DNA of 64,000 nucleotides from Rhodopirellula sp. JB044 (GTDB lineage: Bacteria; Planctomycetota; Planctomycetia; Pirellulales; Pirellulaceae), in the NCBI RefSeq assembly GCF_043101355.1, contig NZ_JBICHZ010000005.1; one strand, given 5' to 3'. A model generated the notes under the pieces. It was not told where the DNA came from. It was given only the letters and a program-made list of their open reading frames with translations, and did no database searches. The stretch's first letter is position 1. The number at the start of each line of letters is the position of its first letter. The position numbers and the translations under genes were made by a program. Positions 2,496 to 20,836 of the stretch are shown one piece after another.

Positions 2496-5330
2496 TCAGT
2501 CCAGACGAATCGGAACGTCAACTGACCGATAAACTGGACGATCGAGCATGTCTTCTGGAGGATCATAGCCCGAATCGATGGCCATCTGCATCGTCTCTCG
2601 GCAGAAATCGCGAAGCTCATTGGTTGCTAAACCATTGATGGGTGTTTGCTCATTGGTTTCCGAACGATCGACCGATATTCGTTCGAGATCGGCTTCCTCT
2701 GACATCACGCGAACCTCTTCGGCAACTCCCGCGAGCCGTTCGCCGTCTCCCTTCCATAACTCACGCCGACGCTTCGCAGTTTCGAACGCTTCGGCATCGC
2801 GGCCGGCCGAACGAAGCAATTTGGCGTAGTTGAAGTAGTGTTTACTGAGATACTCTCGGTACTGGGGAACCTCGGGGGTTGATTGATAGGCTCGCGTTTG
2901 ATGCTTGACCGCCATGCGATAGGACTCGATCGCGCCATCAACTTCGCCGAGTTTCTCCTGAGCAAACCCACGGTTGTTGTAGACGCCACCGAGTGTGCTC
3001 TGCAGATCAGCATCATTGACGAACAACTCAGCAAGAGGAATCTGATGCGCCAGCGATTGATCAAACGCCTCCCGCGCTTCCTCATATCGTTGGTGCGCAG
3101 CGAGCGCTAAACCATAGTTGTTATGAGTCACCGCGATATCGCGTTGATAGTTGAGCTGGTTTGGCCAACGTTCGATCAACTGCGACTGAAGATCGATCGC
3201 TTGCCGATACGAGTGAATTGCCGAGTCCACGTCGCCGGCCACTACTTGCGCCGCACCGAGGCTATTCAACGTCAACGCCACGCGGCTCGCCGTTTTAGGA
3301 TCACCCGGTTGGGCATTGAGTTCGTCCGTCTGATTTCGAAGCGCCGTGCGAGCGTACTCAACGGCGCGTCCCGGATCACGATCCGCCAACAAACCAGAGA
3401 GGTTCTGATAAGTCGACGCCAATTGCAGCGCGACTTCTCCGGTTCGCTTCGCATCCGCGATCGATTCGGACAATTCGATACTGCGTTGGTAGGCATCCTC
3501 CGCATCATCGAGGTTTCCGGTCTTGCTCAGCAGTAGCCCGAGGTTATTGAGCGACAACGCCAAGCCAGCTTTCGCATCTGCATCACCCGGCCGCTCTCGG
3601 ACTAAATCCTCCTGTCGAGCAATCGCCGATCGGTACCAACCGAACGCAGCCTCATACTGGCCGGCTTGATCCAACGCCAACGCCAAGTTGTTTTCCCCTG
3701 TCGCCAACTCCTGCAGTCGGTTCACGTCAAACGGTTGTGCGTCGGCTCGCTTTGCGAACAACTCACGCGACATTTCGAGAGACTCAATTGCTTCCTCGAC
3801 CGCCCCCACTTCGCTCTGAATCGAACCGATCTTTCCGTAGGTGACTGCGAGATCGTGCATCAACTTAGGATCGTCATCCGCCCGGGCAGCAAAGTCTTGA
3901 TAGTACGCAAGAGTCTCCTGCAACAACTGACGCCGAACCGATTCTGCACCCGGAACATCGGCAAGCTTCTCGGCCACTTGGGCACCTAGCCGATCAACCT
4001 GGGCCCGAGACGCCAACTCGCTTCTTGCCAACTGTTCCGCGTTCTCGTCGGATTCCCGTTTCGCCGCGGTGATCATCGCGATGCTGATCGACAGTCCCAA
4101 TAACGCAACAAGCACGAGGCCTGCCGTGGCGGTCACGATTGCACGATGACGGGCCGCCCAGTGCGTCACACGGTCGAACAGCGTGGGAGGTCGTGCTTGC
4201 GTCGGTTCGCCCGCGAGGACTCGCCGCAAGTCGCTCGCTAGATCCGCCGCCGTGTCGTAACGCCCGTCCCGCGACTTCGCCATCGCTTTGGCGACCACGG
4301 TCTCTAAATCGGCCGGGACATCTGAACGAATCGATCGCAGAAGAGGCGCGTTGCGTTCGTCAATGTGACGCAAAACCGCAGGCGCATCTCCTCCGTCAAA
4401 CGCCGGTTGCAAACACAACATTTCATACAGAGTGGCACCGAGGGAATACACATCCGTACGCCCATCGACAATCGCTGAATCGCCGCGAGCCTGCTCCGGA
4501 CTCATGTACCGCATCGTCCCGACGACGTCGCCCGTTTTGGTCAGTGTTGCTTCGGTTTGGCAACGAGCCAAACCGAAGTCAGTGATCCATACCTTTCCAT
4601 TGCGATCGATCATCACATTGGACGGTTTGACATCGCGATGAATCACCCCAAATTGATGCGCCGTATCGAGCGCCTCGGCAATTTGGATTCCGATGGAAAC
4701 CACAGACTCAATCGACGGTTGTTCGCTATGCTCGATTTGCTTTGCAATCACCTCATCGAAAGACTGCCCGTCGATAAACTGCATCGCATAATAGTGCACA
4801 CCCCGCACCGAACCGACCGTGTACACAGGCACAATGTTCGGATGATGTAGCAGAGCCGCAGCATGGGCTTCGTTGTTGAAACGAGCGATCTGTCGCGAGT
4901 CCAACACGGCGGCAAACGGCAATAACTTAATCGCGACAATCCGATCGAGCGACAATTGTTTGGCGCGATAAACGACCCCCATTCCGCCGCGACCGATCTC
5001 TTCGAGCAAACGAAAATCACCGAGCAATTTCTCAGAGGATTCCGCCGACTCATTATCCGTGTCCCCTTCCTCCACACCGTCCTGCGGAACGAACCCGGCC
5101 GCTATTTGATGCAGATCCTCCAATCCGGCAATGTGGGAACGCAGCGGTTCGATGAGTTCGCGATCGTCCGCCGCGAGCTGCTCCACCGACGGCGGCACGC
5201 CTTTCTCTAATGCGATCAAATACTGATCGAGCAACGCGGTGAGACGTAGCTTCTGATGGTAAGTCAGCTTCCGGGTAGTTTCCGACTCGAAACTGAAGTC
5301 AGAAAACGACGACGATTCGATACCGCTCAC
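2496..5330 (-). CDS. Hanks-type Ser/Thr protein kinase with one transmembrane helix and C-terminal TPR repeats
   Basis: Kinase motifs GRGGMGVVY, VAIK, HRDVKPSN, DFGLA and GTMRYMSPEQ. TM segment IVTATAGLVLVALLGLSISIAMI. Repeated LA.S.NNLG TPR units. GTGA overlap with the sigma-factor stop. Confidence 0.95.
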   Translation of the reverse strand: MSGIESSSFSDFSFESETTRKLTYHQKLRLTALLDQYLIALEKGVPPSVEQLAADDRELIEPLRSHIAGLEDLHQIAAGFVPQDGVEEGDTDNESAESSEKLLGDFRLLEEIGRGGMGVVYRAKQLSLDRIVAIKLLPFAAVLDSRQIARFNNEAHAAALLHHPNIVPVYTVGSVRGVHYYAMQFIDGQSFDEVIAKQIEHSEQPSIESVVSIGIQIAEALDTAHQFGVIHRDVKPSNVMIDRNGKVWITDFGLARCQTEATLTKTGDVVGTMRYMSPEQARGDSAIVDGRTDVYSLGATLYEMLCLQPAFDGGDAPAVLRHIDERNAPLLRSIRSDVPADLETVVAKAMAKSRDGRYDTAADLASDLRRVLAGEPTQARPPTLFDRVTHWAARHRAIVTATAGLVLVALLGLSISIAMITAAKRESDENAEQLARSELASRAQVDRLGAQVAEKLADVPGAESVRRQLLQETLAYYQDFAARADDDPKLMHDLAVTYGKIGSIQSEVGAVEEAIESLEMSRELFAKRADAQPFDVNRLQELATGENNLALALDQAGQYEAAFGWYRSAIARQEDLVRERPGDADAKAGLALSLNNLGLLLSKTGNLDDAEDAYQRSIELSESIADAKRTGEVALQLASTYQNLSGLLADRDPGRAVEYARTALRNQTDELNAQPGDPKTASRVALTLNSLGAAQVVAGDVDSAIHSYRQAIDLQSQLIERWPNQLNYQRDIAVTHNNYGLALAAHQRYEEAREAFDQSLAHQIPLAELFVNDADLQSTLGGVYNNRGFAQEKLGEVDGAIESYRMAVKHQTRAYQSTPEVPQYREYLSKHYFNYAKLLRSAGRDAEAFETAKRRRELWKGDGERLAGVAEEVRVMSEEADLERISVDRSETNEQTPINGLATNELRDFCRETMQMAIDSGYDPPEDMLDRPVYRSVDVPIRLD

Positions 5331-5968
5331 GCATTGGCCTCAAAAGAGGCTTTGAATTTGTCCATTGCTCGCAACCACAACATCCGCACCGATCCTGGTT
5401 TTCGATCAAGACGATCTGCAATCTCGTCAAAAGACAAACCTTGCAAGTTACGAAGTACGATCACATCACGGTATTGAGGTCGTAGTTTTGCGAGCTGATC
5501 AGCCAACTCCACTGCACGCTCGCGGCGACGCATCGGTTCACTCGGCGACGGCCCACGATCGGCCAACATGTTGGCAAAATTTGCTGCGCTGTTGTCGATC
5601 GTTTGGCTGACTTGTTCGATCGAAATTTCACGACGCATGTCTCGCTTCTGAGCGTTGAAGTGCACGTCGATCGCCGTCCGCAGACAATTCACCAAAATCT
5701 GCCGCAACCAGGCTAAGAACTCATGCTCCGTCCCGCCACGAAAAGCCTCAAAATCACGGTGAGCACCCAGCATCGTTTCTTGAACCAAATCCGAAGGATT
5801 CATCCTCCGTCGCAATCGCCCGTCCAACTGGGTGGTCGCCAAAACAGTCAAATAGTTCCGGTATAACTGAAGCAATTCACCAAGGGATTCGGCACCCTCG
5901 TCGCGGGCTTTCTCCAGCATAACTTGAACGGGCGATGCGGCTTCGTCCGGTGTCTCGGCTTTATTCAT
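5327..5968 (-). CDS. ECF sigma-70 factor, planctomycete kinase-associated type
   Basis: Region 2: LGELLQLYRNYL...SDLVQET...EFLAWLRQIL. Region 4: LRPQYRDVIVLRNLQGLSFDEIADRLDRKPGSVRMLWLRA. The probable start is the ATG at 5968 (track ORF extends to 6112). Coupled to the kinase. Confidence 0.92.
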   Translation of the reverse strand: MNKAETPDEAASPVQVMLEKARDEGAESLGELLQLYRNYLTVLATTQLDGRLRRRMNPSDLVQETMLGAHRDFEAFRGGTEHEFLAWLRQILVNCLRTAIDVHFNAQKRDMRREISIEQVSQTIDNSAANFANMLADRGPSPSEPMRRRERAVELADQLAKLRPQYRDVIVLRNLQGLSFDEIADRLDRKPGSVRMLWLRAMDKFKASFEANA

Positions 5969-6248
5969 AACGACATTCGATCCATCTCTTGCATGGGATT
6001 CCGCGACCCGTTCACGGCGGGTCTCAGCGTCTAAAGTCAGTTTAACCGGCCGTCCGACCAACCACGAAAACGCAGGGCCAAACTCAGTGTTGCCGCTTTC
6101 ACCGATCGACAAGCTATCACTCTAACCCAGCATCGCACCATGAGTTCCGCGACATCCCGGACAGGCGAGCAACCGAAACGGCGATTCTCAACACTCACGA
6201 CTTAGCAACCGCCGGGAATTCCACGAAACGCCCCCGAACGAGAGGAGG

Positions 6249-7265
6249 TTATTCGTCTCCGCTCGACTCGCGACGGCCCGGCCGATCCACCCATTGGTAG
6301 GCACGTTGTGAATTCAACGACGCGAAATTACGAACCGCGTTTTCTCCCCATTCCGCCGCGTACTCGAAGACGATTCGCTGCAACGATTCGTAGTCGGCCG
6401 CTCGCTCGGAAACCGGCCAATTGCTGGCATAAATCACTCTATCGTCACCAAACGCGTCCCAAACGACGTCCAAGTACGGCCGGTAAAAGCCGAGATCATT
6501 GGGGGCCTGTGCGCCGCTTTCTCGCTCCGCGTTTTCGACCAAAGCCGAGATTTTGCAAAAGACGTTGGCGTGTCTTGCCGCCGAACGAATGCCTTTCACC
6601 CAATCTTCCGGTGGAGGCGTTGACGAAACCTTCACGTTGCCGATGTGGTTGATCACCATTCTCAACCGAGGAATTTTCTCAGCGGCCCTCGCCACCACTG
6701 CCGGGGTTCCCGCGCCTCCGTTAACGTCGAGCGCAAGACCTTTCTCAGCGAGCAGACGCAAATCATTCAAGGAATCTTCATCTTCGCGGCTTGCTCGAAG
6801 CAGTTCGTCGAGTCTGGTACTTCGAACTCGAATACCACGAAACAATGAATTCCCAGCGAATCGACTGAGTTGCATGGCGAATTCGGTCGACCCGATCGGC
6901 AATCGTCCAATGATGCCAACGATGAAAGGATCATCGGCAGCCAAGCCCAACAACCATGCGTTGTCCTCCACACGTGAACTCGCCTCGACAATCACCGTTC
7001 CAGAGACGGGGCGAAATTGCTTCAGCGCACGAAAGTGGCCAGGCAACACAGTCCGGTACAGCGAAGAATCTCTCGAAGGCCACGGCACGCCTTCGGGCCG
7101 ACTCGGATCGTAAAAGTGCGTGTGGCAATCGATAATGTCGAGGTCATCTATCCAAGCCGACGGTTCGTCTGCTCGCGCGGAAGGCTGACCGCATGTTACC
7201 CCCATCCCCAAACTGAATGCGATTGCCGCCAAGATCCAAATTCGATGTTGAGACATCCAAATCAT
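6249..7265 (-). CDS. Secreted amidohydrolase_2-family protein (sugar-lactonase-like)
   Basis: Signal peptide; DCHTHFYD metal motif; FRGIR; INHIG; CKISAL; YASNWPV. ATGA overlap with the upstream WD40 gene. Confidence 0.8.
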
Positions 7266-8770
7266 TTCGTTTTGATCACATGAGAATGAAGCCGACCGGC
7301 CGAATCCCCTGTGATCGCGGTGGCACCGTTGAAGGTCAACACCGATTGTAGCGGAAGGTTCTTGATATTGTTGTGCTCGCTATCGTTCGGAACGGTGAAG
7401 ACGCTGACAATATTCGCATCGCTCGACCACACGCGTACTTTCTGATCTCGGCCGCAACTGACTAACTCGCCGCTCGGACCAAACCGCAGATCCAGCACAC
7501 CGTTGGGGATTTCACCATAAAAACCGCTCGGTCGCATGGGTTGGTGTGCTTTCGCTTTTGTGTATAGCGGCCAACCTTTTGCCACGTCCCACCACACGAT
7601 CAGACCGTCCTCTCCACTGGACGCCAACACGCGAGAATCGGATCGCCATTCGAGTGCCGTCACGGAAGCCTTGTGTTCCGCCAACGGGCGAATGACGCCT
7701 CCGCTTTCGGCATCCCACAAATGAATGTTTCCGACGCGATCGGCCGTTGCGAGATATTTTCCATCGGGGCTGAACGCCACCGCAGTCACCCAGTCGGTGT
7801 GTTTGACCAACCGATAAAGCAACTCGCCTGTCTCAGTAGAGAACACTTTAATCATCCGGCCCGAACCGCCGATCGCGACTCGTCGTTCGTCAGGCGAGAG
7901 ATCCGCAGCCATGATCACATCGGCCTCGTCGCCCATCTTTGCCAGACGCTTCCCGGTTTTCACGTCAAACAGTACCGCGACCCCATTCTGCACGGGACGC
8001 CCTCCGGCAACCATTAACAGTCGCCCCGATCGGCTGAACCGCAGCACATGCGGTTCGCCTTCAGGGAACGCCACCGCTCCGACGGTCTCCTGCGATTGCG
8101 TGTTCACAAACTCTACGCGTTCATACGAACCGACCGCCAACAGAGGCGCTCGCGGGCTCGCCGCCATCGCAATTACGGGGAACGCACGCAGTGTTCGCGC
8201 GGGCTTCAACGGCGACAAGGCTTCGGGCATCGCCGGTGGCGTGTCGTCGAAATCAGTCATCGACGTCGGCGTGAACGCCACACCTTGTTTCTTCTCGACC
8301 TTGCTCCCCGCGTTTTGCCGCAACCCAGAGTCAATCCAGGCGCGAATCAACGCGACCTGTTCTTTGGGAAGAGGATCATTTTCCGGAGGCATTCGCTCCG
8401 CCGGATCTTCGGCCACGATAATCTCCAACAACCGACTGCTACTCGAACGCCCCGCGACGACGAGATCATCATTCCCGGCGATGTCCACATAACTGGCCAA
8501 GTTGAGCCCCGCTTCTTGCTTCGCATCACCGTGACATTGCCAACAATGGCGTTTCAAAATTGCAGAGACATGATCATCAAAATTGACAGGCGGCTCCCCC
8601 AAAGCCTCGCGATTGGCCTCCACCGCGATCGCTTCCGAGGGCAGAATCATCGCTGCGAACGCGAGCAAACACGCCACGTGCCACGACGGCAAACAAGGGT
8701 TTGGTTTCGCTCGTTTCTTCGTTTGAACTGGAATCATGAGGGTCATCAAAACGGGAAAACTATCGGACAT
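7262..8770 (-). CDS. Planctomycete cytochrome c (PSCyt1-like) domain + WD40 repeat protein
   Basis: [20 protein letters not shown] contains a CxxCH heme motif and is followed by ERMPP...WIDSG. WD40 repeats include [30 protein letters not shown]. Confidence 0.88.
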
Positions 8771-8817
8771 ACGGCGTGGCAGCGAAACATCGAGACTGAG
8801 GATACAGTCGGGTGGCG

Positions 8818-11124
8818 TTAGTGGTTAAACGAAAACTCCGTTGAGTTGAACAAGCCCCAAAAGATATCTTCATACGCCTTTGGGTCTTTGGTAGAATCAC
8901 CCACCACCGCAACGAGATCTTTAATCTCCTCCTCGGTGGGCTGGCGAGAGAGAGTTCGCACAAACAATTCTTCGATAACCTGCTCGGGCTGTTCTTTCGA
9001 TGCGACGAGTTTTCGGATCTCACCATTGGCCCACAATCGCTTCTGAATCGTTTCGCCAACGGCAAGGTGCAGTGCCTGCGACAAGGTCGGCTGTGTGTCT
9101 GTTTCGCAGGCACATATCGTGGCACGACTCGATCGGCCGAACGTCTTAAAGAACGGCGTCCCGTAGTTCGGCCCTCCCGTGTCACCGCCGGAGATCGGGA
9201 AATAATTGATCGCGCGAGTACCGGCGGCAAACTTTGGCAACGACGCCTGCATGCCTGTCGCGGTGGCAACGGAATCGAGCAACACGTCCGCCCGCAAATG
9301 CCTCAGGTAAGCATGCGAGAATTGTCGGGTGTCCCCCTTGTTCGACGCGTTGGGCTGAACACTCAGTTGATAGACCCGAGAGTTGCAAATGTCTCGCACC
9401 AACGTTCTGAGATCGAAACCGGAATCCACCAAGCGGTCGGAAATCGCGTCGAGCAGCGGCCCATTGACCGGTGGATTACTGACGCGAATGTCATCGACCG
9501 GCTCAACGATCCCTTTGCCGAGCAACTGTGCCCAGATTCGGTTAGCAATGTTGCGACTGAACATCTCGTTGTCAGGCGACGTCAACCATTCCGCGAGCTC
9601 CTTCCTCGGATCGCCGTCACTCGCCACCGGTTCGACACCACCGAGCACGCGTGGCGGCATCGGACGCTTGTCAACGACGTGCTTCATCGGCGGCGTTGAC
9701 GTGTCATAGAAAATCCTCCGTTCACGAGGTTCCACACCGGGTTTGCGTTTCATCCCAGCAAAGAAACTGACAAAGCTATAATAGTCGTCCTGGGTCCACC
9801 GATCGAACGGATGGTTGTGGCATTCGGCACATTGAATCTGCACCCCGAGAAAGACCTGCGAGAAATCGGCGGCGAAGACTTTGGGTTCGAAACGAGGTGC
9901 GTGGACCATCATCGTGTACAGGTTCGCGGGTCCGTTGGTCAAATTACTGCCCGACGCAACGACCATTTCTTCCACGAATTCGTTCAGCGGACGTCCCGAT
10001 CGCATTTGCTTTCGGATCCATTCGTAAAACGACATCGCGGCTTTAACGTGCGTCGCGGCGGGAGCATAGTTGCCGCCAATGATTCGCAGTTGCTCCGCCC
10101 ACAACGCCGTCCACAAGTCCGCAAACTCATCGTTTGCCAGCAACTCGTCGATCTTTGCCGCACGATCTCGATCGCCATCCATGAACTCGCGGTACTCGTC
10201 TACCGTCGGAGTTCGGCCGGCCAGGTCCAACGTTACACGTCGCAAGAACGTCTCGTCATCGCACAGCCCCGACGGAGTGATTCGCAGTTTCTGCAATCGG
10301 TCATAGACCAGTTGATCGATGTAGTTCGTCGCGGGTGGATTGGGCCAATCAAACCCTTCAGCGGGCGGCAACACGATGACCTCCACCCCGACCGTGAATC
10401 GGTTGTAGCGTGCGAACACGTACGTATCACCTGGACCGACCGCCGTCACGATGCCATTGTCATCGATCGTCGCCACGCTTTCGTTGTTGCTGTGGAATCG
10501 TGCCAACGAAGTGACCAACCGCTTCGAACCATCACTCGCGATCGCGCCAACCCGTAAACGATCTTTGGCACCTTTCTTTTCAAACAGAAACCGCTTTTTC
10601 GAGAGGATCACCTCGACCGTGTCGGGAACCGAATCGGAGTCATCGGGTGCACCGGCGGCAATCCAACGATAGAGCGTTTCATAGTACTCGCTGGATTCGT
10701 CAAATAGTTTCCCGCCGGTGTGCGCTACTTTCCCTGTAGATTTCAACAGCAGCAAGCTTTGTTCGGGAACCGCCGTGTTGACACGCCGCCCCACCATTTC
10801 ATTCACGGTGCGGTGATAGTCGCCTTTGGGATCGTACCCGAACAACGACAACATGAAGCCGTCCTTGCCACTCGCGGCGCCGTGGCACGACCCCGCGTTG
10901 CACCCGGCTCGAAAGAACACCGGCATCACGTCGCGACGAAAACTCGGCACGTCGATTTCAGCGACATTGTCGTTGGCAGCAACAGTTGTGAATGAGATGC
11001 CCACGACAAGAATTGCTAGTATCAAACTCAACGTCCGACGATGGGGCGTGATACTTGCAACGCCGTTGGCAAAGACTGCCTTGAGCAATAATTTTCTGAA
11101 CATGAAATCGAGTGCAAAAGTCAT
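8818..11124 (-). CDS. DUF1549/DUF1553 (PSCyt2/PSD1) protein with Ig-like (BIG2) domain
   Basis: [23 protein letters not shown]; NYIDQLV...[19 protein letters not shown]; [25 protein letters not shown]; [18 protein letters not shown]; [13 protein letters not shown]; [17 protein letters not shown]. Confidence 0.92.
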
Positions 11125-11208
11125 GATGCGTTCCTAAATGCCCGATTCATTTCGTGTGGGCAAAACGTTTTGGTGCGGCCGAGGGTCGAGTTTTTCGTCA
11201 AACGTTCG

Positions 11209-13677
11209 TCAACCTTGTCCCGGGTCAATTCTCAGCACGCCATTGCCGGTTCGCTGAACAATCTCTTGGCCCTCCGCCTCGAGTATCACTTCGCACGCCA
11301 ATCCCGTCGCTGCCCCCAACAGAGCCTCTTCAGTGGCTTCAATTTCGAAACGCACCTCTTTGGATTGATTGTTCAATGTCGGCATGGGGTCGATGACGTT
11401 CACCCCTTTCGGCAACCCGAGCAATCGGACGCGAGCCTCACCATCAAACGCATTTTTGTGCTGGACGTTCCATACGAACGATTTGCGTTCGCCCCGGCGA
11501 ACACTCTCGGGATTGGCCGCCAACTCGACATATCGGTCCGCAACCGTGAGTTCGATAAACTCAGACGACACTCGTGTGTGACCAACGCCCAAGAAAGGGT
11601 CGATGTCGTCTCGAACAGTGCTGGCAATCGCAACCACCGGCCAAGTCGTTAGCTGTGCACCGGGCGTCGCCGAAATTCTCATTAGTCCTTCTGTTTCGCC
11701 TGGAGGAATCGTTTGAGGCGGCTGGATCGCTAGACCCGGCGGCGACCAAACCGCCCCAAACTCAACCGCACCCTCAAATCCTGGGCGGCGGTGAATTTTG
11801 ACGGGCAATGCCAACTCACCTCCCCGAACGAGCGGCGCCGACGGCTTGATCAATTCAATTGAAAACGGTGCCGGATCGACCACGGCCGTGATATACGCAT
11901 CCACTCGCACCGTATTCCAGGCATCCCCTCCGGAATGGTTGATAAAAGGCACCTGTTGCACCGATCGACTCTCGACGTTCTCATTCGGATCGGCAGGGAT
12001 CGCATCGAGAGTGATCACCGCCCCACCAGGCTCTGCGGTCTCATCAGCAACAAATTGCATCGGCCAAACCCGGGGGATCTTGCCTTTCGGCATCGGAGGA
12101 ACGATCAATGACATTCCTTTGGGAAGTCCGCGAGCGACGACCTGAAAGTCACCTTTTATCGAATCGCACTGTCCCTGCGGGAGGTTCACATTGACGGTCC
12201 ACCGATTGCCGCGTGGAACCGCGAGTCCCGTCACTCGCATCGACTCGGTCCAGTCAAACGTCGTGCTGCGAAGCACTGTTTGAAAGAGCGTTCGTGGCGG
12301 TTCAATTTCAATTCGATAAACGCCCGTCGGGCCACCGTTGTTGCTCGAATCAAGCAACTCGATCAAATACTCGCCGTCCTTCTTTGGCTCCCAAACCACG
12401 GACGGATCCAGCGTATCGGGTAAACCACTGCGAGAGCGATAGTTTGTTCCATAGACATCACGTTCTTCCAACGTCACGTCATCGAGATCGACTTCCGGAT
12501 CGCCGGAACTGCCATCCTCTTCGATCGGCAGAATACGAATTCGAGGATCGATGGGTGACCCCAAGGTTGTGGAGTACACACGAACATGCCATCGATCCCC
12601 CTTATTGACCCGCACGCGAAAGCGGTCGGACGGGTCTTCCGATTCGATGATCCCATTGATCGCGATTGGCAGCGTTTCCACATCCGTCACACTGGCATCG
12701 GGTTCTTCGAATACGTTCGGGTACGGACTGCTGCGCAGCCGCAGCGGAGTCGGGGAACTGCCAAAATACTCAAACGTTCCTTCCTTCGCGGGAATCTCCA
12801 CAGCACTCTCATAATCCCCAAACGCGTCGCCGATAAAACGAATCGTTTCCTTCTTTCCGGCTTGGCCGCCGAGAGGATACGCGGCCTTCGGACGAGGAGT
12901 GTCACTGATATGGACGCAATAGGGTCGCTGTGAAGGCACAAAAATTGAACGGGAGACTTCGACAAACACATGTCCGTCCCGGGGCACCTTCAGCGACACC
13001 AACGGATCTTGAATCAATAGCGCGTTGTCATCGTTCGCGGCCAACTCTCGGCCACTTTCGTCCAACACTCGAATGGCGGTATCAAATTCAGAGTCGCCAT
13101 AGTGAACGTCCGCGATGCGAGCACACCCGACCTCGACTGCCAACCGCTGACCTGCGGAGACGGGCACCCTGTACATATCCACGTCACCCCGATGCCCGCC
13201 ATTTAAATACCCACGCACACTCACATTGGGTTGAACATCGACCGCATTCTCCATCGTGTCATTCTTGTTGTGCCCCTCCTCGTTCTCGTCTGTGACGGGG
13301 AACGGAGTGACATGAAATGTGGCGATCTGGGTCAATTCCGTTGAAGTTCTTAATCGAAACGCGTGCTCACCCGGCGGGCAATCCGGGGCGATTTCGAATT
13401 GGCAAACCACCGCTTCTTTCACGACTCCTCCGTGCATCAAGCTGCGTCGTCTGGGCTGTTCCTCAGGCGTCCGCAATTGGGTCGCACGGATTCCCGGTTG
13501 ATAGAAGATGATCTCTTGAGGGTTCGACAACGAAACGCCGCCAATGGTGACCTCAACGGTCGTTCCACGTTGTGCGATTCTCGGGCGGACGGTCTCAATG
13601 CTCTTGGTCATCGCACCAACGCAAACGTTGGTCAACGCACACAGCGACAACATGATGACAAACAAACGCGCGTGCAT
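11209..13677 (-). CDS. Secreted PPC (pre-peptidase C-terminal) domain protein, usual partner of DUF1501/DUF1553
   Basis: Signal peptide; PRIAQRGTTVEVTIGG; repeated PPC-like units (GDVDMYRVPV.AGQRLAVEV...DTAIRVLDESGRELAANDD...DP; DRFRVRVNKGDRWHVRV...IDP). No protease catalytic domain is recognisable. Confidence 0.8.
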   Translation of the reverse strand: MHARLFVIMLSLCALTNVCVGAMTKSIETVRPRIAQRGTTVEVTIGGVSLSNPQEIIFYQPGIRATQLRTPEEQPRRRSLMHGGVVKEAVVCQFEIAPDCPPGEHAFRLRTSTELTQIATFHVTPFPVTDENEEGHNKNDTMENAVDVQPNVSVRGYLNGGHRGDVDMYRVPVSAGQRLAVEVGCARIADVHYGDSEFDTAIRVLDESGRELAANDDNALLIQDPLVSLKVPRDGHVFVEVSRSIFVPSQRPYCVHISDTPRPKAAYPLGGQAGKKETIRFIGDAFGDYESAVEIPAKEGTFEYFGSSPTPLRLRSSPYPNVFEEPDASVTDVETLPIAINGIIESEDPSDRFRVRVNKGDRWHVRVYSTTLGSPIDPRIRILPIEEDGSSGDPEVDLDDVTLEERDVYGTNYRSRSGLPDTLDPSVVWEPKKDGEYLIELLDSSNNGGPTGVYRIEIEPPRTLFQTVLRSTTFDWTESMRVTGLAVPRGNRWTVNVNLPQGQCDSIKGDFQVVARGLPKGMSLIVPPMPKGKIPRVWPMQFVADETAEPGGAVITLDAIPADPNENVESRSVQQVPFINHSGGDAWNTVRVDAYITAVVDPAPFSIELIKPSAPLVRGGELALPVKIHRRPGFEGAVEFGAVWSPPGLAIQPPQTIPPGETEGLMRISATPGAQLTTWPVVAIASTVRDDIDPFLGVGHTRVSSEFIELTVADRYVELAANPESVRRGERKSFVWNVQHKNAFDGEARVRLLGLPKGVNVIDPMPTLNNQSKEVRFEIEATEEALLGAATGLACEVILEAEGQEIVQRTGNGVLRIDPGQG

Positions 13678-13747
13678 AGTGAAATCAGTGGGGAGGCAGG
13701 GGAACGATAAAAGTCGGAAACGGAACGTGTAAAAGCTACTCAGAAGG

Positions 13748-15154
13748 TCAAGTCAGCAATCCGTTGACCAACTCGCCGCCCTTGATGATTTCGATCGGAC
13801 GCGTTCCGAAGGCCAACAATTCCTTGCTCGCATCAATACCGAGTTGGTGGTAGATGGTGTGCATTAGGTTCTCGAGCGGTACCGCGTCCCGCGCCGGCTC
13901 GCCTCCGATCGAATCACTTGCCCCGTAAATCAGACCGCGGGAGAAACCACCCCCGGCGATCAACATGGAATAATTCCTGGCCCAGTGATCCCTGCCGCTG
14001 GTGTTGTTGATTTTCGGCGTCCGTCCGAACTCAGACGTCACCCAAAAAATCGTGGAATCCAGCAACCCCCGTTGGTCCAAATCGGTAATCAACCCGGAGA
14101 TCGCGTGATCAAGGGCAGGCATCTGATCCAGGCATGCACTCTCGACATCGACATGCGAATCCCATGCCCCGTAGGTAACCGTCACGAACCGCACACCGGA
14201 CTCGACCAACCGCCGGGCGACAATCATCTTTTCGGCAAGTCCCTTCGGATGGAAACGACGGTCCGGGCCTCTCAACCCGACGACATCACGGCCATAGAGC
14301 TGAAAAGTCTCTTCGGTTTCACCATCGAGGGCAAACGCTGCTTGCGACTCTTTCGACGTCAGCAGTGTGTAAGCCTGCTGATAAAAATCATCCATCGTAT
14401 CGAGCATGGTCTGATCGGCTTCCAAACGCCGAATCTTCTGCTCGATGATTTCTCGAGCCGTTTTCCGTCGACTAAAACGATCCATCGAAACGCCTTCGGG
14501 GACCGAAAAGTCTTTGACTTTGTAGTTTCGCTCCGCCGGGTCGGCGTTCAGTTCAAACGGCCCGTGCGTGCTGCTAAGAAAACCCGTTCCACCGGCAAAG
14601 CTGTGGTTGTTTGGGATCGCGACATAGGGCGGCAGATCGCCGCGTTTGCCCAATTCATGAGAGACGATCGATCCCATTTGTGGGAAATCAATCACTGCGG
14701 TCGGCGTGTACCCCGTGAAGAGATGATAGGTTGCGGTAGCGTGATCCGGAATCTTGCCGACCATGCTGCGAACCACCGTCAGTTTGTCGGCGATGGCTGC
14801 GGTGGTCGGGAAGTTCTCACTGAAGACCTCTCCGGTGTTTGTCTTGGTAACACCAAACGCGCCACGATATTCCACCGGCGATTCCGGTTTCGGATCAAAC
14901 GATTCGTGCTGCGGAACGCCACCACCGAGATGCAATTGGATCACACTGAGTGCCTTGGGATCCTCCAGCGTTTTACCCCGGGTCATGCTGAACGCATCAC
15001 CCCCTTGCGACTGCAACCGGAGCATATCGCCTAAAGACAATGACAGCCCACCACACACACCGGCTTGGATAGCGGCGCGGCGGTTGACCATCGATCGGAA
15101 CCCCTTGCAGCCATATCGATTGGGCGCATCGGTCGATCTGTTTTGACGCGACAT
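13748..15154 (-). CDS. DUF1501 family protein with Tat-type signal
   Basis: NRRAAIQAG twin-arginine motif; [20 protein letters not shown]; [14 protein letters not shown]; WDSH; [35 protein letters not shown]. Confidence 0.93.
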
Positions 15155-15231
15155 TCTAATTTTCCTTGGGCAGGCGGGAGGAAGGCAGGATTGAGGTGGG
15201 AGTAAGGCGAGGCAGGTATCAGGTGGGGCTC

Positions 15232-15247
15232 AACATGACTTCATGTT
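15232..15247. promoter_or_regulatory. Perfect palindrome AACATGA-ct-TCATGTT upstream of the DUF1501 gene
   Basis: 7-bp arms with a 2-nt spacer, too short a loop for a terminator hairpin. It lies in the 105-bp gap between the anti-sigma gene and DUF1501. Confidence 0.3.
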
Positions 15248-15259
15248 TGGCAAACAAAA

Positions 15260-17023
15260 TCATGGTTTGGGAAGGGGGTGCTCAAGAGGCGGGTTATCAC
15301 GTGACCAGACCAAGCTCGGACGTCCTTCGTCTACGAGCGTCGAGATTTCTTCATCGCTTAACGCCCGTTTCCAAATCGCAACCTCATCCATTCGGCCACG
15401 CAGCGCACGTGGCGGGCGTTCTGAGAACTGTGCAAACGGCACCCAGTTACCCAGGCGGCAGACACCAGGCTTGATCGGATATTCATCTTCACGGAGCAAA
15501 CTCTGCGTTACTTTCTCACCGTTGACGTAGATGTCACTGCGTTTATCCGGGACCGACGTGACCGATAAAACATGAACCCACTTCCCCACGGGCACGGGAT
15601 CACCGATCCAGCGGAGTTCATCGCGTCGGGCACCCATGATGCCTCCGCGTGGCAAACCGAAACGGTTCATTTGAAAGTGAAGCACGCCGTTTTCCCCACC
15701 ATTGCTATTGCAGATGGAAATCATTTCCCGGTCGAGCCGATCTACCTGGATCCAAACGGCGATCGTCATTTCCTCGTAGGTTCCCGGAATCTCGAACTCA
15801 ACAAAATCCGTATCGCGATCGAACAGCAAAGCATCTTTCCCGGGCCAACGCCCCGACACCCAACGCGGACCGGAGATCTGCCCCGGGGTCACCAACGCAT
15901 TTCCTGCCGCGTTGACCAACAGTTTGGAATCGTCTTGCCTTGTAAACGGGAACCAACCGATCAGGCTCGGGTCATCGACATGTCGTCTCCGCACCGTTTT
16001 CCACCGCAGAAAACCGATTTCGCCGGGTGACGGAAACTGCTCCGCGGCGGGCTCCTCACCGGGTTTGGCCTCGCCACCGGAATACCGCACCCAGTCGCCC
16101 TCATAGACGCTCTTCATCAGACCATTGTTTTTGGCTTCACGAACGTTGACCTGACCGTCGAAGACCTGCATTGTGCTTTCGCCGGTCTTCTTCGAAACGT
16201 TCAAACCGAACTCGGTCCCCACATCTTCGAAGTTCACGTCGGTCGTTTTGATGGTAAAGCCGACCGCCGAAGGAGGAACAATCGCGCGGACCGCTCCATA
16301 CGCCAACCGAGCGTGCAGCAGATCGTCAATCGCCAACTTGGCCGGCGCCTGCATCACCAAATCCACCCCGCTGGCAAACCGCAGATGGATCGTTCCTTCC
16401 AACAATTCATAGTCACCAGGATTGAAAATAACGTCGTCCGTGGAACGACCGCCGGCAAACTTAGCGCCCGCCTCGTCGACCAACATCGCCGTGATTTCAG
16501 CGTTGACATGATCGACCTGGACCACTTCCACCGGCGACGAGAGAACAACCGCCTCGCCATCGATCCAAAAATTTGGCCGTTGCCCTATCAGCACGGCGAG
16601 ACACCCGCCTACCAACATCACCCACGGAACCACTACCGCCGCATACCAGGTGACCCATGATGCCGACCGCGGTCGGCCCCCATTGCCACGTCGCCATGCC
16701 TCTTCGCCAGAGTATGCATGACTTTCCGGCAATCGCACCGTCGACTCCGCGTCGACGTGTTTGCCGTCTGAGACATGGCCGATCTGATCCACCATTCCAC
16801 CAACCGCATCGACCGACACTTCTCTTGCGACTCCAGCCTCCAAGAGACGATGCCGGATGTAGTGCCGCCTCGCCTCTCGATCTTCCATCAGTCGCTGCTG
16901 CAGTTTGGCAAACGCTTCATCGCTCAACGTTCCGTCGATCGCTGTCGACAACAGCTCAATGAATTCGCGATCCCGACGTATCGAATGCAGCGATGACTGC
17001 TTGGACTCGTTTTGATGATCCAT
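15260..17023 (-). CDS. FecR-domain anti-sigma factor with C-terminal LamG/ConA-like domain
   Basis: N-terminal anti-sigma helix (FIELLSTAIDGTLSDEAFAKLQQRLMEDREARRHY), TM, FecR (YELLEGTIHLRFASGVDLVMQAPA...DVGTEFGLNV...VFDGQV) and LamG (MTIAVWI...GKWVHV...IYVNG...GRMDEVAIWKRALS.EEI). The true start is the ATG at 17023, a TAATG overlap with the sigma stop; the track start at 17203 is too long. Confidence 0.88.
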   Translation of the reverse strand: MDHQNESKQSSLHSIRRDREFIELLSTAIDGTLSDEAFAKLQQRLMEDREARRHYIRHRLLEAGVAREVSVDAVGGMVDQIGHVSDGKHVDAESTVRLPESHAYSGEEAWRRGNGGRPRSASWVTWYAAVVVPWVMLVGGCLAVLIGQRPNFWIDGEAVVLSSPVEVVQVDHVNAEITAMLVDEAGAKFAGGRSTDDVIFNPGDYELLEGTIHLRFASGVDLVMQAPAKLAIDDLLHARLAYGAVRAIVPPSAVGFTIKTTDVNFEDVGTEFGLNVSKKTGESTMQVFDGQVNVREAKNNGLMKSVYEGDWVRYSGGEAKPGEEPAAEQFPSPGEIGFLRWKTVRRRHVDDPSLIGWFPFTRQDDSKLLVNAAGNALVTPGQISGPRWVSGRWPGKDALLFDRDTDFVEFEIPGTYEEMTIAVWIQVDRLDREMISICNSNGGENGVLHFQMNRFGLPRGGIMGARRDELRWIGDPVPVGKWVHVLSVTSVPDKRSDIYVNGEKVTQSLLREDEYPIKPGVCRLGNWVPFAQFSERPPRALRGRMDEVAIWKRALSDEEISTLVDEGRPSLVWSRDNPPLEHPLPKP

Positions 17024-17556
17024 TACGACGCCTTTAGTTTTTGCTGGACGCAACCGAGCAATGATTCTCGAATTCGGAACAGAGCCTGACGCACCGAACC
17101 CACGGTTCGATCGAGCGACTCGGCGATTAACTTTAGAGACGAGTCTGGCTCGTAGCGCATGCTCAATAGCTGACGTTGCGGCGTCGGCAATTTCTCCATG
17201 CACCCCTGCAACACCTCCATGCGGTCATCAATCTCACTATCCATCTGCTGCACATCCAATGCAATCAATTCCAGAAGCGAATCATCAAACACCAATCGAT
17301 CTCGCCCGAGACGCTTGCAATGGGTAAGGACCTGGAACCTCGCGATCGTCGAGGCCCACGCCCAAAAATTGGTGCCCATTTCGAATTCATCATGCTTGCG
17401 CAGCAAAACAACATTCACGTCCTGCAAGACATCATCAATGTCTTTGGGATCAAACAGCAAACACCGCACGAACCCGTAAAGTCGGTTTTGCGATCGAGTG
17501 AGTTCACGCACGAACGCGTCAGGAACGGAATTGTCTTTTGTGTCTGCTTGCATCAT
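17023..17556 (-). CDS. ECF sigma-70 factor (Rhodopirellula/Verrucomicrobium type)
   Basis: FVRELTRSQNRLYGFV; DIDDVLQDVNVVL; NFWAWASTIARFQV; LQGCMEKLP..QRQLLSMRY...IAESLDRTVGSVRQALFRIRESLLGCV. Likely start MMQAD at 17556 (track 17613). Confidence 0.93.
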   Translation of the reverse strand: MMQADTKDNSVPDAFVRELTRSQNRLYGFVRCLLFDPKDIDDVLQDVNVVLLRKHDEFEMGTNFWAWASTIARFQVLTHCKRLGRDRLVFDDSLLELIALDVQQMDSEIDDRMEVLQGCMEKLPTPQRQLLSMRYEPDSSLKLIAESLDRTVGSVRQALFRIRESLLGCVQQKLKAS

Positions 17557-17830
17557 TTTTCTCCAGCAATCTCGCAACCACGAGTGAAATGCGGCTTTGC
17601 TCGTTGTAGGCACATGGCGCGACAGAACGCATCATCACACCGAAAAAGAGCGACAATGGCTGAGTTTTTCACCGAGAGTCACCCCTCTAGAAAAAGGAAT
17701 GCCAGACACGAAACAACACTGGACACACGCACAGGAGCCAAAAACAGGACACACACTCTCTTTTTACACCTTTCGCGTGCCTACTTGCTTCCTGCCTACA
17801 TGCTCCCTACGAACTTACCTGCCTGGCTAA

Positions 17831-20800
17831 TTACCACAACTTGAAACACTCAGATTCGTTTTCGACCGCCAACACTCTTTGATCGACGCTGACACCGTGA
17901 TGCACTTGCTGCCGCCCTCCGGGCCATCGAATCTGGAGTTGCACCGGTTCACTCGCTTCCCCTAGCCCAAACGAAACGACGTTTTCATTGCGACTCAGAT
18001 AGCCATCTCCTGACGCGACACACTGCACGGCCTCTCGGTCGCCCGACTTCACCGTAACCCTGGCTCCAATCGCATCGCGTTCGGACTCTGTCCCAACCAA
18101 TTGAACCTGCAGCCAATGGTTTCTCGTCGGAGTCTCGTTAACCAGCAACGCAGACGGCTGACCGGTGTGTGTGACGACGAAATCGTTCCTTCCGTCTCGA
18201 TCGAAGTCCAACCGCGCTAAACCACGCCCCAGGTAACTCGCCTGCCAATATTCAGCATCATGGCTCATCTCGACTGGCAAGAAACCTGTGCCGGAATTCG
18301 CCAACAACTGGGTTGGCTGGAGAAAAGGAACTCGGATCTCGGTCGAATCGTCGAGGTGCCCGTTTGCCACCACCAAATCGAGGTCGCTGTCATTGTCATA
18401 ATCAATCGCCTGACATCCAAACCCCACCATGCTGCGAGTCGGACCAGCAAGGCCGAACGCAACACTGCGATCTTGATACGCGTCACGATCCGATAAGAAC
18501 AAACTCGAATTCTGATTCTCGTAATTACTGATGTGAATATCCGTCGAACCGTTGGAGTCAAAGTCACCGATGGCGATTCCCATCGATCCAGTCGCCACTC
18601 CACTGCCGTCAAACGCACACCCCTTCAACGTCGCAAGATCGCTCCAAACCTGCCCGGTAGAATCGCGCGTCCAGAGCTGGTTCGGTGTCAAATCGTTGCC
18701 CACAAATACTTCATTCCCGGCGACGCCATCGAGATCGGCGACCACGACACCCAACGCGTAACCCTGTTCACGGTCCTCACGGCGAAACGGTTCTGAACAA
18801 AAATCACCTTCGCCGTCGTTGATAACCAGTGTGTCCACACCGACGTGGTACTCGCCCGGTGACACCGCAGCGACGACACGTCCCGACGCATCCAACGGCG
18901 GCTTGCGGCTGATTTCGGGATCGTCCACATAGACGCACTGAAAAAGATCGGGCAGACCGTCTCCGCTCAAATCGGCCATGGCGATAGACGAGGGAACCCG
19001 AGCGAGATTGACATCATCCGCCAACGGACACCGCTCAAATGATCCGTCTCCGTTGTTGATAAACAATGAGTCGACGCCGATGTTTGAAACAACCAAATCA
19101 GGAAAGCCGTCTTGGTTCCAATCTCCGCTCGTCATTCCGAGACTGTACTGCGTCTCTCGCGTACCGCTCGCACCGGTCACGTCGACCAACGCCTGCCCCA
19201 CGTTGCGGAAGAACTGGTTGGACTGTTCACCTGCCGCCCTCGGCGGATCGGCCGTTCCTTGTGCAAACGCCAAATCAGCCATGCCGTCCAAATCGAAATC
19301 GATCACCGCCACACCGCCCCCGAGGGTTTGGTGAATCGAATACCGCTGACGGACCGAAGACTCCGCAACTTGGTACGAGTGATCTAATCCTGCACGTTCG
19401 GCAACATTCACGAACCTGGCACCAACGAAATCTTCGTCACTTCGCATGCGTTTCCGAATAGCGATATCACCGATCGCATTCGAGCTGAGCGACGGCAACG
19501 GGAAGTCATCCAGGTGCAAACCGCACAAATGATCTTCCGTTCGTGGACGCTCCCTTCGGGCAACAACGAGCCTGCGACGCTCAGCATTCAGCTTGGCCAC
19601 CTCTTCGGCAGGTGCGTCTCGATATCCCGCTTCGAGAATTTTCCAAAGCACCGCTTCGAGTCGCCGATCGAGCCTTACTAAGGTGTCAGCGAGTCCGGCC
19701 ATCGCATCCACGTTGGGCTCATCCGATTGAGCGATTTGGTTGTTGTACTTCAGCGCGTCCTGAAGCGCCGACCACCGCGAATTCCATCGCTCGGCGATCT
19801 TTTCATACCCTAGAGCGATCAACGGCTGCCGAAGTCGACCGATCGAAATGAAATCCGTTGAGTCTCTTGAAACCGCTTCCGCCAACGCACGTACTGCTTC
19901 GGGATATCTCCGGTGCCGCGACTCATGGGCGCCGATCGCCGCCCAGTAGTCAGCAAACTCTTGCGTTGCCGCATCGGTTCGCCCCAACCACCATTGAAAA
20001 CGCTTATCGTCCTGTGTCTCGGCGACGGCTCGCCCGTACAGAGCAATCGCCGCTGGCATTGCTTCGCCGGCACGAACGGCATCGTGCAACGTTTCGATAA
20101 CATCATCGTACTGCTGCAACGCAAACTGCCGACGCGCTTTTCCCAAACGCCCGATCGGCCAATAGGGTAATGTTCCGGGCTCGAGCTTGTCGCGTTGCGA
20201 CGGATCGTCATACATCGCATCTGTCAAAATGACCAACGCATGAAGTTCGTCCTGATGAACGTCTCCACATCGACACAGCGGAACAATCTGTTCGGCGGCC
20301 TCCTGCCGGCGACCTTGACGGTTCAACAGGTAGGCTAGTTGGCGACGCGGAGGGACCGCGTCGGGCATCCTCTTGATAATTTCTCGGTAGCGATGCTCCG
20401 CTTCGTCATACCGCTGCAAACGAAAGCACCAGTCTGCAGACTGCCCCAGCGCAGGCAGCCCGGCCTCGGGATGATCACGAGGTATGCTATCGAGCAACTC
20501 AATCGCTGTTTCGAAACTCCCGTCCGCCGCCCGAACGCTCGCTAAGCGGAACAACACCTCGACGTCATCTGGCTCGATCAACAACCAGTTCTGCAACGAC
20601 TCGGATGCCCCGGCGAAATTGCTTTCACCCACGAGTCGTTCGGCAGTAGCGATCGCAACGGCGCGGCGCTGCACCAGTGCGGGGCCGCTGTGCTTCTCGT
20701 TGAGGTCGGTTGCCTCGTGGTTAACCCGAGCCTCACTCACCGAAGGACGTGCAACCACCTTCGGTTGCTCCTTCACGCCCTGCTCAGGAACAGACATCAC

Positions 20801-20836
20801 GTTCGCGTCCCCACCACACCCGCACAAAACGACCAC
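17831..20836 (-). CDS. TPR + FG-GAP/CRTAC1-like + ASPIC/UnbV lipoprotein (copy 1)
   Basis: Lipobox-like VLCGC; TPR half; GGGVAVIDFDLDG and repeated D.N.DG.PD FG-GAP motifs; C-terminal NHWLQVQLVG..S.RDAIGARV...GDGYLS.NE....FGLG...I.WPGG. The start may lie further upstream because the frame stays open. Confidence 0.88.
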   Translation of the reverse strand: MVVLCGCGGDANVMSVPEQGVKEQPKVVARPSVSEARVNHEATDLNEKHSGPALVQRRAVAIATAERLVGESNFAGASESLQNWLLIEPDDVEVLFRLASVRAADGSFETAIELLDSIPRDHPEAGLPALGQSADWCFRLQRYDEAEHRYREIIKRMPDAVPPRRQLAYLLNRQGRRQEAAEQIVPLCRCGDVHQDELHALVILTDAMYDDPSQRDKLEPGTLPYWPIGRLGKARRQFALQQYDDVIETLHDAVRAGEAMPAAIALYGRAVAETQDDKRFQWWLGRTDAATQEFADYWAAIGAHESRHRRYPEAVRALAEAVSRDSTDFISIGRLRQPLIALGYEKIAERWNSRWSALQDALKYNNQIAQSDEPNVDAMAGLADTLVRLDRRLEAVLWKILEAGYRDAPAEEVAKLNAERRRLVVARRERPRTEDHLCGLHLDDFPLPSLSSNAIGDIAIRKRMRSDEDFVGARFVNVAERAGLDHSYQVAESSVRQRYSIHQTLGGGVAVIDFDLDGMADLAFAQGTADPPRAAGEQSNQFFRNVGQALVDVTGASGTRETQYSLGMTSGDWNQDGFPDLVVSNIGVDSLFINNGDGSFERCPLADDVNLARVPSSIAMADLSGDGLPDLFQCVYVDDPEISRKPPLDASGRVVAAVSPGEYHVGVDTLVINDGEGDFCSEPFRREDREQGYALGVVVADLDGVAGNEVFVGNDLTPNQLWTRDSTGQVWSDLATLKGCAFDGSGVATGSMGIAIGDFDSNGSTDIHISNYENQNSSLFLSDRDAYQDRSVAFGLAGPTRSMVGFGCQAIDYDNDSDLDLVVANGHLDDSTEIRVPFLQPTQLLANSGTGFLPVEMSHDAEYWQASYLGRGLARLDFDRDGRNDFVVTHTGQPSALLVNETPTRNHWLQVQLVGTESERDAIGARVTVKSGDREAVQCVASGDGYLSRNENVVSFGLGEASEPVQLQIRWPGGRQQVHHGVSVDQRVLAVENESECFKLW

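Follow-up and report, generated by a model that had tools for sequence, protein, structure and literature searches.

A conserved DUF1501/PSCyt2-PSD1 envelope module between an ECF/FecR-LamG sensor pair and an exported lactonase-like hydrolase in Rhodopirellula sp. JB044

Layout of the seven-gene locus

The 64-kb stretch of Rhodopirellula sp. JB044 that we analysed (contig NZ_JBICHZ010000005.1 of assembly GCF_043101355.1), called the window below, carries at 6249-17556 a tandem series of seven open reading frames (ORFs), all read from the minus strand. An extracytoplasmic function (ECF) sigma factor gene and a gene for an anti-sigma factor of the FecR-LamG type, together the sensor pair, are followed by genes for a DUF1501 protein, a PPC protein, a PSCyt2-PSD1 protein and a PSCyt1-WD40 protein, and the series closes with a gene for an exported hydrolase of the Amidohydro_2 family (genes 1 to 7; Table 1). 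The last base of the ECF stop codon TAA (17025-17023) doubles as the first of the FecR start codon ATG (17023-17021), giving TAATG; at the other end of the series the amidohydrolase ATG (7265-7263) begins one base ahead of the WD40 stop codon TGA (7264-7262), the two overlapping in ATGA. The other intergenic gaps measure 105, 70, 84 and 47 nt. All five products downstream of the sensor pair begin with a hydrophobic export segment, and the twin arginines of the DUF1501 protein (R25 and R26), the mark of the twin-arginine translocation (Tat) pathway, are invariant in 39 orthologues and paralogues. The initial annotation of this DNA had described seven co-oriented genes with these two overlaps and short gaps, and five exported downstream products, and in all of these respects it was borne out. 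These features support the view that the seven genes form one compact co-directional unit.

In the spacer between the FecR and DUF1501 genes we found neither a copy of the motif that lies upstream of the ECF gene nor a terminator-like hairpin, which would be consistent with read-through transcription. A scan for sigma-70 promoters and terminators gave no signal exceeding chance, no Rfam family was matched, and a repeat scan returned only short imperfect repeats, which we take to be chance matches.

Table 1. Features of the locus in window coordinates, listed from the upstream end
Feature	Coordinates	Strand	Length	Basis or remark
Candidate promoter/operator motif GTGTGA-N13-CGCGCCA	17615-17640	-		5' of ECF gene; putative function
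Gene 1, ECF sigma factor	17023-17556	-	177 aa	Pfam Sigma70_r2 and Sigma70_r4_2
Gene 2, anti-sigma factor	15260-17023	-	587 aa	Laminin_G_3, 56.6 bits; borderline FecR
FecR-DUF1501 spacer	15155-15259	-	105 nt	C/T-rich; AAGGAA at its end before ATG
Gene 3, Tat-exported DUF1501 protein	13748-15154	-	468 aa	PF07394, 323.9 bits
Gene 4, exported beta-rich PPC protein	11209-13677	-	822 aa	Pfam PPC
Gene 5, exported/anchored CX4CH-Big_2-PSCyt2(DUF1549)-PSD1(DUF1553) protein	8818-11124	-	768 aa	Pfam
Gene 6, exported PSCyt1-WD40 beta-propeller protein	7262-8770	-	502 aa	PF07635, 44.3 bits; PF00400, 93.5 bits
Gene 7, exported Amidohydro_2 hydrolase, lactonase-like	6249-7265	-	338 aa	Pfam, 117.8 bits

The conserved four-gene core

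Genes 3 to 6 are almost certainly the four-gene DUF1501/PPC/PSCyt2-PSD1/PSCyt1-WD40 module of the Planctomycetes-Verrucomicrobia-Chlamydiae (PVC) bacteria described by Kamneva et al. (2012, Genome Biol Evol, PMC3542564), because their domain architecture agrees with the published cluster gene for gene. That study reported a 'most complex' four-gene cluster, in PVC bacteria that include Verrucomicrobium spinosum, encoding a DUF1501 protein (often with a twin-arginine signal), a signal-peptide protein with weak PPC domain(s) and conserved regions that are otherwise without assignment, a PSCyt1/Big_2/PSCyt2/PSD1 protein and a PSCyt1/WD40 protein; it gave the function as unknown and proposed electron transport and membrane targeting. 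The two clusters have in common their gene types, signal peptides, Tat motif, haem-type motifs, co-directional packing and a range that takes in Planctomycetes and Verrucomicrobia. The window differs in adding the ECF/FecR-LamG pair before the module and the exported Amidohydro_2 protein after it, and in a PSCyt2 protein whose N-terminal domain carries CX4CH and falls below the PSCyt1 model. Gene order differs as well, since the WD40 gene stands last in the window and first in many related loci. Later papers (PMC5615132, PMC4452313) leave these genes unexplained, and our literature search found no function assigned to DUF1501, DUF1549 or DUF1553.

Using the PPC protein as a marker, we collected 80 genome loci from Planctomycetota and Verrucomicrobiota (numbered here with an L) and mapped the seven window proteins onto them by tblastn. 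We counted as assessable the 40 loci that hold all four core genes and at least 1.2 kb of sequence on either side, and the fractions of 40 given below refer to these. The description of the DUF1501/DUF1549/DUF1553 genes as a recurrent and uncharacterised PVC module, made in the initial annotation, agrees with these 80 loci as it does with PMC3542564. Where the other core genes are present in a related locus, the DUF1501, PPC and PSCyt2 genes remain together; the WD40 gene is last in 24/40 complete loci and first in 16/40. Identity to the window proteins is 63-91% for DUF1501, 62-96% for PSCyt2, 47-95% for PPC and 45-76% for WD40, against 24-41% for the paralogous DUF1501/PSCyt2 pairs in the same loci. 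Identity this high across two phyla, set against paralogues this distant, marks the core as one sharply conserved orthologue group. A few loci depart from the usual form. The PPC gene stands alone in L013 and L057, where the other core genes were not found within 10 kb, it is duplicated in tandem in L064, L065 and L076, and in L053 it lies opposite an inverted PPC-PSCyt2-DUF1501 set. In L028 the DUF1501 match is broken in two, suggesting either a frameshift or a misassembly.

An AlphaFold2 model of the DUF1501 protein, built from the 39-sequence alignment (predicted local distance difference test, pLDDT, 79; predicted TM-score, pTM, 0.80), gave 178 Foldseek matches in the PDB at E<=1e-3. The best match is 1P49 (E 2e-7), and the best 50 of the 178 all belong to the alkaline-phosphatase superfamily, among them S1 sulfatases, choline sulfatase, lipoteichoic acid synthases of the LtaS/LtaP type, phosphonate monoester hydrolase, phosphodiesterase and alkaline phosphatase itself. 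The TM-scores of these matches, 0.3-0.4, mark DUF1501 as a divergent member, and on the strength of the model we describe the protein as a divergent alkaline-phosphatase-superfamily fold. The single DUF1501 sequence matched nothing in the PDB, a DUF1501 sequence profile returned weak sulfatase and LtaS matches (E 0.06-1.2), and the C/SxPxR motif of formylglycine sulfatase maturation is not present in the protein. Residues D87, H138, D332, H334 and H390 are among those invariant in orthologues and paralogues, and D389 is nearly so. In the predicted secondary structure of the model, H138 comes after a core strand and starts a helix. The strand-to-helix turn is the topological nucleophile site of the alkaline-phosphatase superfamily. 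On the basis of this predicted secondary structure only, H138 would stand where relatives carry a serine, threonine or formylglycine nucleophile.

The remaining core proteins carry beta-rich and haem-motif domains. The PPC protein scores 25.1 bits against the PPC model, slightly under the cut-off of 25.9, and PPC is detected in 14/14 of its orthologues. An N-terminal domain is followed by PPC domains at about 140-262 and 326-465, and the C-terminal part is made of three beta domains related to one another; by internal hhalign comparison the two PPC domains match each other at E 1e-9 and the C-terminal domains match one another at E 1e-5 to 7e-4. By sequence it has no relative in the PDB, and its family spans 415 representative clusters at E<=1e-30 in a 50%-identity library. 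The PSCyt2-PSD1 protein, which includes a Big_2 domain scoring slightly under the cut-off (22.4 against 22.8 bits), holds two haem-type motifs, CNAGSCH at residue 75, of the CX4CH form, and CAECH at residue 432 within PSCyt2, both invariant in 69 orthologues. Its N-terminal domain misses the PSCyt1 model and aligns by hhalign with the PSCyt1 domain of gene 6 at E 8e-4. A fold search with the model of this protein (pLDDT 71.5) found PDB relatives for the Big_2 part only; 'teneurin-like' PDB matches were ruled out, since they involve only the Big_2 repeats. The PSCyt1-WD40 protein carries CWQCH at residue 76, and its C..CHG and RMPP motifs are invariant in 51 orthologues. The conserved motifs predict haem attachment in genes 5 and 6. 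Two haem-motif proteins had been recognised from the start, and both stand with invariant motifs; the motifs themselves number three (CAECH, CNAGSCH and CWQCH).

Conservation of all four proteins in both phyla, as one orthologue group set apart from paralogue pairs, is unusually high, and it would suit a housekeeping or stress machine concerned with the upkeep of an envelope component. Such a machine could act, for example, in the turnover of lipid- or wall-linked phospho- or sulfo-esters or in redox homeostasis, and the ECF/FecR pair would then report the state of the envelope and not a food glycan. The LtaS/LtaP-type synthases among the best structural neighbours of DUF1501 point in the same direction, as do an amidohydrolase orthologue inside a murE-murF-mraY-ftsW cluster, described below, and the induction by heat, cold and salt stress of RB10049, an ECF factor of Rhodopirellula baltica encoded beside a PSD1/PSC2 gene (PMC2754498). 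We nonetheless think this explanation rather unlikely. Essentiality or phenotype data were not found, genes of envelope biogenesis are not a conserved feature of the module's neighbourhoods, and the ECF link is seen in a minority of loci only.

The sensor pair and its upstream motif

The ECF factor of the window matches TIGR02989, the Rhodopirellula/Verrucomicrobium sigma family, with 166.6 bits (cut-off 124.55); its ORF meets no stop codon as far back as a GTG at 17613, which leaves the start uncertain. The anti-sigma factor consists of a cytoplasmic N-terminus, a single transmembrane segment (residues 128-147), a periplasmic FecR-like part (238-292; Pfam FecR 23.5 bits, E 8e-5, slightly under the 24-bit cut-off) and a LamG/ConA-like domain (417-561). 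The arrangement is similar to that of FecI/FecR/FecA, in that an ECF gene is in translational coupling with the gene of a candidate anti-sigma factor, which has one membrane span and a borderline FecR match in its periplasmic part, and the putative targets lie directly downstream. It differs in that no TonB-receptor or STN domain occurs in the ten genes at 2496-20836 of the window, that a LamG/ConA-like domain forms the C-terminal end of the anti-sigma factor, which scores just below the FecR cut-off, that the sigma factor falls in TIGR02989, and that the targets are not iron-uptake genes. In R. baltica, an ECF factor beside a PSD1/PSC2 gene has earlier been proposed as the regulator of the latter (PMC2754498). 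The window holds a second ECF sigma gene beyond the amidohydrolase, which overlaps a Ser/Thr kinase-TPR gene (2496-6112); this second pair occupies the same place in L001 and L002 and was not found in L003.

Among related loci the sensor pair is a facultative companion of the core. ECF and FecR-LamG genes stand ahead of it in 6/40 assessable loci, three of them (L001-L003) close relatives of the window and three (L049, L055 and L063) verrucomicrobial. Identity in the periplasmic part of the anti-sigma factor is 42-55% in the verrucomicrobial loci, and long blocks of it are invariant. A search of metagenomes from the FecR side gave 19 loci, nine of which were distinct and had enough downstream sequence, and the module follows directly in four of these nine (L086, L090, L092 and L094). 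In L089 the amidohydrolase comes next, at the end of the contig, and in L088 the module lies 9 kb downstream, with a paralogous PSCyt2/DUF1501 pair between it and the ECF/FecR pair. In the remaining three the FecR-LamG gene heads other gene sets, described below. The proposal in the initial annotation that the sensor heads the module is thus upheld in part, by six loci seen from the module side, by four to six of the nine seen from the FecR side and by a motif in L088 described below, with the qualification that the association is facultative.

A motif of the form GYGTGA-N13-SGCGCCAT is conserved 5' of the ECF gene in the Rhodopirellula-clade loci L001-L003. The pattern GYGTGA-N13-[CGT]GCGCCA has just two copies on both strands of the window, at 17615-17640 and at 22340-22365. 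The latter, on the minus strand, reads GCGTGA-N13-GGCGCCA and lies about 140 nt upstream of a DUF1559 gene (22203-20956). Both copies are kept at orthologous places in L001-L003; chance would be expected to supply about 0.01 copies per window. The shared motif may mean that a single regulator serves both the upstream DUF1559/CRTAC1-like pair and the ECF operon.

ECF genes of the verrucomicrobial type have a different, two-block motif, CGTCAG-N13-CGGGArTC, just upstream; a consistent -35 element could not be defined among them, and we describe it as a two-block site only. With a weight matrix made from 12 sites we scanned 3.1 million positions, and all sites above 20 bits sit upstream of ECF genes except the one at L088:12767, which scores 31.6 bits where the next non-ECF site scores 16.6. 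This copy (L088 12767-12806, TGTCAGA-N12-CGGGAGT) stands 33 nt ahead of the ATG of the WD40 orthologue, which is the first gene of the module in that locus. A copy of the ECF motif placed before the module supports sigma control of the module, and we think it probable that the module is controlled by the adjacent sigma factor. In the window, the short gaps and the lack of terminator-like hairpins would allow read-through from the ECF operon, without proving it.

The hydrolase slot and the possible function of the module

The closest solved structure to gene 7 is 4DLF (E 3e-18, 260 alignable residues), the L-fucono-1,5-lactonase BmulJ_04915. The two proteins share the Amidohydro_2 family with its triose-phosphate isomerase (TIM) barrel, the HxH of strand 1 and an NH(I/V)G motif. 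The window protein differs in being exported and in standing outside a fucose pathway cluster, it scores 111.5 bits against the L-fucono-1,5-lactonase model NF052480, whose cut-off is 400, and it has SNWPV in place of the GSDWPV of 4DLF, which puts an asparagine at the position of the strand-8 aspartate. That aspartate is a functional residue of amidohydrolases. The asparagine recurs in 10/11 module-linked copies and in 104/120 homologues, and the second solved relative, 6UVZ, has it too. Judged by these comparisons, gene 7 is lactonase-like and not a fuconolactonase. Its leader reads SQHRIW (7245-7256) where that of R. sallentina reads PQRRIW, and a Tat-like RR is present in 105/120 homologues; with HR in the window against the RR of its homologues, the first arginine of the likely Tat motif is lost in this genome.

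An Amidohydro_2 gene adjoins the core in 7/40 assessable loci and in a further three partial loci. Its place varies among at least four: it may follow WD40, follow PSCyt2, stand between FecR and WD40, or come straight behind FecR. In 5/40 loci and one partial locus the slot is occupied by exported GxSxG alpha/beta-hydrolases of the BD-FAE/Abhydrolase_3 type, which form three groups, mutually 27-32% identical and found at three different positions. Seven loci is also the most in which any other neighbour family recurs. That exported ester-type hydrolases of unrelated families have come to the slot repeatedly is a genuine, though facultative, signal that an ester or a lactone is handled. Orthologues of the amidohydrolase (60-66% identical) stand in unrelated contexts in 4/4 genomes that were looked up. 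The Planctomycetaceae loci L100 (10001-13372) and L101 (10001-13297) have an orthologue (63-66%) after murE-murF-mraY-ftsW, with a sodium:solute symporter gene and a creatininase-family gene following it.

These observations bear differently on the several parts of what the initial annotation had made of gene 7. That the amidohydrolase is kept by the module is true of seven loci and untrue of most. A step of ester or lactone hydrolysis gains from the three distant alpha/beta-hydrolase groups that share the slot. The scheme to which that step belonged finds weak support: it envisaged a carbohydrate-induced periplasmic sugar oxidase, in which the haem proteins would make a lactone from a sugar and the amidohydrolase would hydrolyse it. 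Such an oxidase would account for a characterised lactonase (4DLF, NF052480) being the closest such relative of gene 7 and for the recurrence of ester- or lactone-type hydrolases by the module, some of them with weak dienelactone-hydrolase matches; the LamG domain of the anti-sigma factor and the tie between PSCyt genes and carbohydrate-binding modules (PMC5615132) would also fit. We find it very unlikely all the same. By Pfam the seven proteins contain no flavin (FAD), pyrroloquinoline quinone (PQQ), nicotinamide adenine dinucleotide (NAD) or molybdenum dehydrogenase domain, the WD40 propeller is made of ordinary WD repeats, and the fold of DUF1501 is of the phosphatase/sulfatase type and not a redox fold. 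The lactonase score of gene 7 and its asparagine speak against it as well, as does a hydrolase that is missing from most loci and has orthologues elsewhere in every genome looked up. Finally, DUF1501 remains 63-76% identical outside the Rhodopirellula clade, Verrucomicrobiota included, which suits a universal substrate over a niche sugar.

The best explanation, and in our view quite a likely one, is that the window holds the Rhodopirellula-clade copy of the conserved PVC envelope module, set behind a sensor pair and ahead of an exported hydrolase. The anti-sigma factor would sense a periplasmic ligand or state through its highly conserved FecR and LamG part and free the sigma factor, which would transcribe its own operon from its own promoter, and the module would be read through with it. 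The four exported proteins would assemble on the periplasmic face of the cytoplasmic membrane. DUF1501 and the PSCyt2-PSD1 protein might form the catalytic centre, pairing as they do in all simpler paralogous modules, with up to three c-type haems coupling this pair to electron transfer and the PPC and WD40 proteins serving as scaffolds. The accessory hydrolase would remove a carboxyl-ester or lactone function from the module's own substrate. The chemical scheme in this explanation is tentative, and we would sooner expect it to be revised than confirmed.

Several observations weigh against the explanation as a whole. Neither the sensor pair nor a hydrolase stands beside the core in 22/40 assessable loci. 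The window has no second motif copy ahead of DUF1501, and therefore control in the window would need read-through; co-transcription is itself assumed from the short gaps only, and the motif evidence for sigma control comes from one locus, L088, of a different lineage. On the structural side, the TM-scores of the DUF1501 model are low and no nucleophile is assignable, and the PSCyt2/PSD1 fold is without a solved relative in the fold search of the model. Orthologues of the FecR-LamG protein, moreover, head other genes: a PA14/Calx-beta giant protein in L081/L082, and pairs of PSCyt3-PSD and DUF1552 proteins in L083 and L096/L097. The PSCyt3/PSD2-5 (DUF1585/1587/1588/1592/1595) and DUF1552 pairs, headed by such orthologues in L083 and L096, resemble the window module in joining an exported haem-motif multidomain protein to an exported enzyme-like protein, and differ from it in their domain families and in that no PPC or WD40 partners were seen.

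Some of these points would be expected if the seven genes were not one functional unit, and the sensor pair and the amidohydrolase were mere neighbours of the module in the Rhodopirellula clade. The loci in which both are absent, the unrelated contexts of the amidohydrolase orthologues, the other modules headed by FecR-LamG orthologues and the window's lack of a promoter motif ahead of DUF1501 would all be explained in this way. Set against them are accessory genes of the same types that recur flush with the core and on the same strand in several orders, the start/stop overlaps at each end of the window unit, and the ECF-upstream motif that is duplicated before the module in L088. Because the accessory genes recur in two phyla, a chance neighbourhood is unlikely, and we give this alternative little credence, on a par with the sugar oxidase.

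A bolder version of the chemistry is conceivable and, though improbable, is perhaps a shade less so than either of these. The DUF1501 and PSCyt2-PSD1 core could be an unrecognised haem-wired metalloenzyme built on an alkaline-phosphatase scaffold. With its three c-type haems it might perform the redox-coupled release of an ester-bound group, in a loosely Sox-like manner, and the recurrent esterase or lactonase, itself exported, would ready the same substrate beforehand or finish it afterwards. The Sox thiosulfate-oxidising system combines periplasmic c-type cytochromes with an oxyanion-releasing metallo-hydrolase and small beta-sandwich partners. The likeness of the window module to Sox is by analogy only, with no sequence or fold relation shown and no sulfur-carrier motif identified.

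The core module itself was already known, having been described in 2012; what is added here is a quantified and facultative sensor link, the motif copy in L088, the hydrolase-slot pattern and the fold of DUF1501. Few unexplained gene sets in Planctomycetes and Verrucomicrobia are as large as that of the DUF1501 and PSCyt/PSD proteins, with 41 copies of each of the PSD1 and PSC2 domains in R. baltica (PMC2754498), and the four-gene version is the most conserved among its forms. Three handles on this version emerge: a dedicated sigma/anti-sigma pair with a recognisable motif, which could switch the module on; the repeated filling of one slot by unrelated exported hydrolases of ester type, a hint at the chemistry of the substrate; and a fold assignment for the enzyme-like subunit DUF1501. 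If the ligand of the sensor were found, the substrate of the module would probably follow. Should the core prove to be a haem-wired metalloenzyme, the FecR-LamG protein would give experimenters a switch for a module unexplained since 2004/2012.

The surroundings of the core in other genomes hold some further recurrent genes. In six loci from metagenome-assembled genomes (MAGs) of lake Planctomycetaceae (L025, L031, L033, L035, L036 and L039), a small TfoX_N-domain gene is found immediately 5' of the module and in the same orientation; in all six except L025 it is itself preceded by an Exo_endo_phos-family gene. The sister pair of PSCyt1-PSD3-PSD5-PSD4-PSCyt3-PSD2 and DUF1552 (HXXSHH) proteins is encoded near the module in L025, L049, L052, L066 and L070. 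Four module-bearing lake MAGs (L012, L039, L074 and L063) are labelled 'Candidatus Kuenenia stuttgartiensis' or 'Akkermansia muciniphila', and these labels look doubtful because DUF1501 has been reported absent from Kuenenia (Kamneva et al. 2012, PMC3542564).

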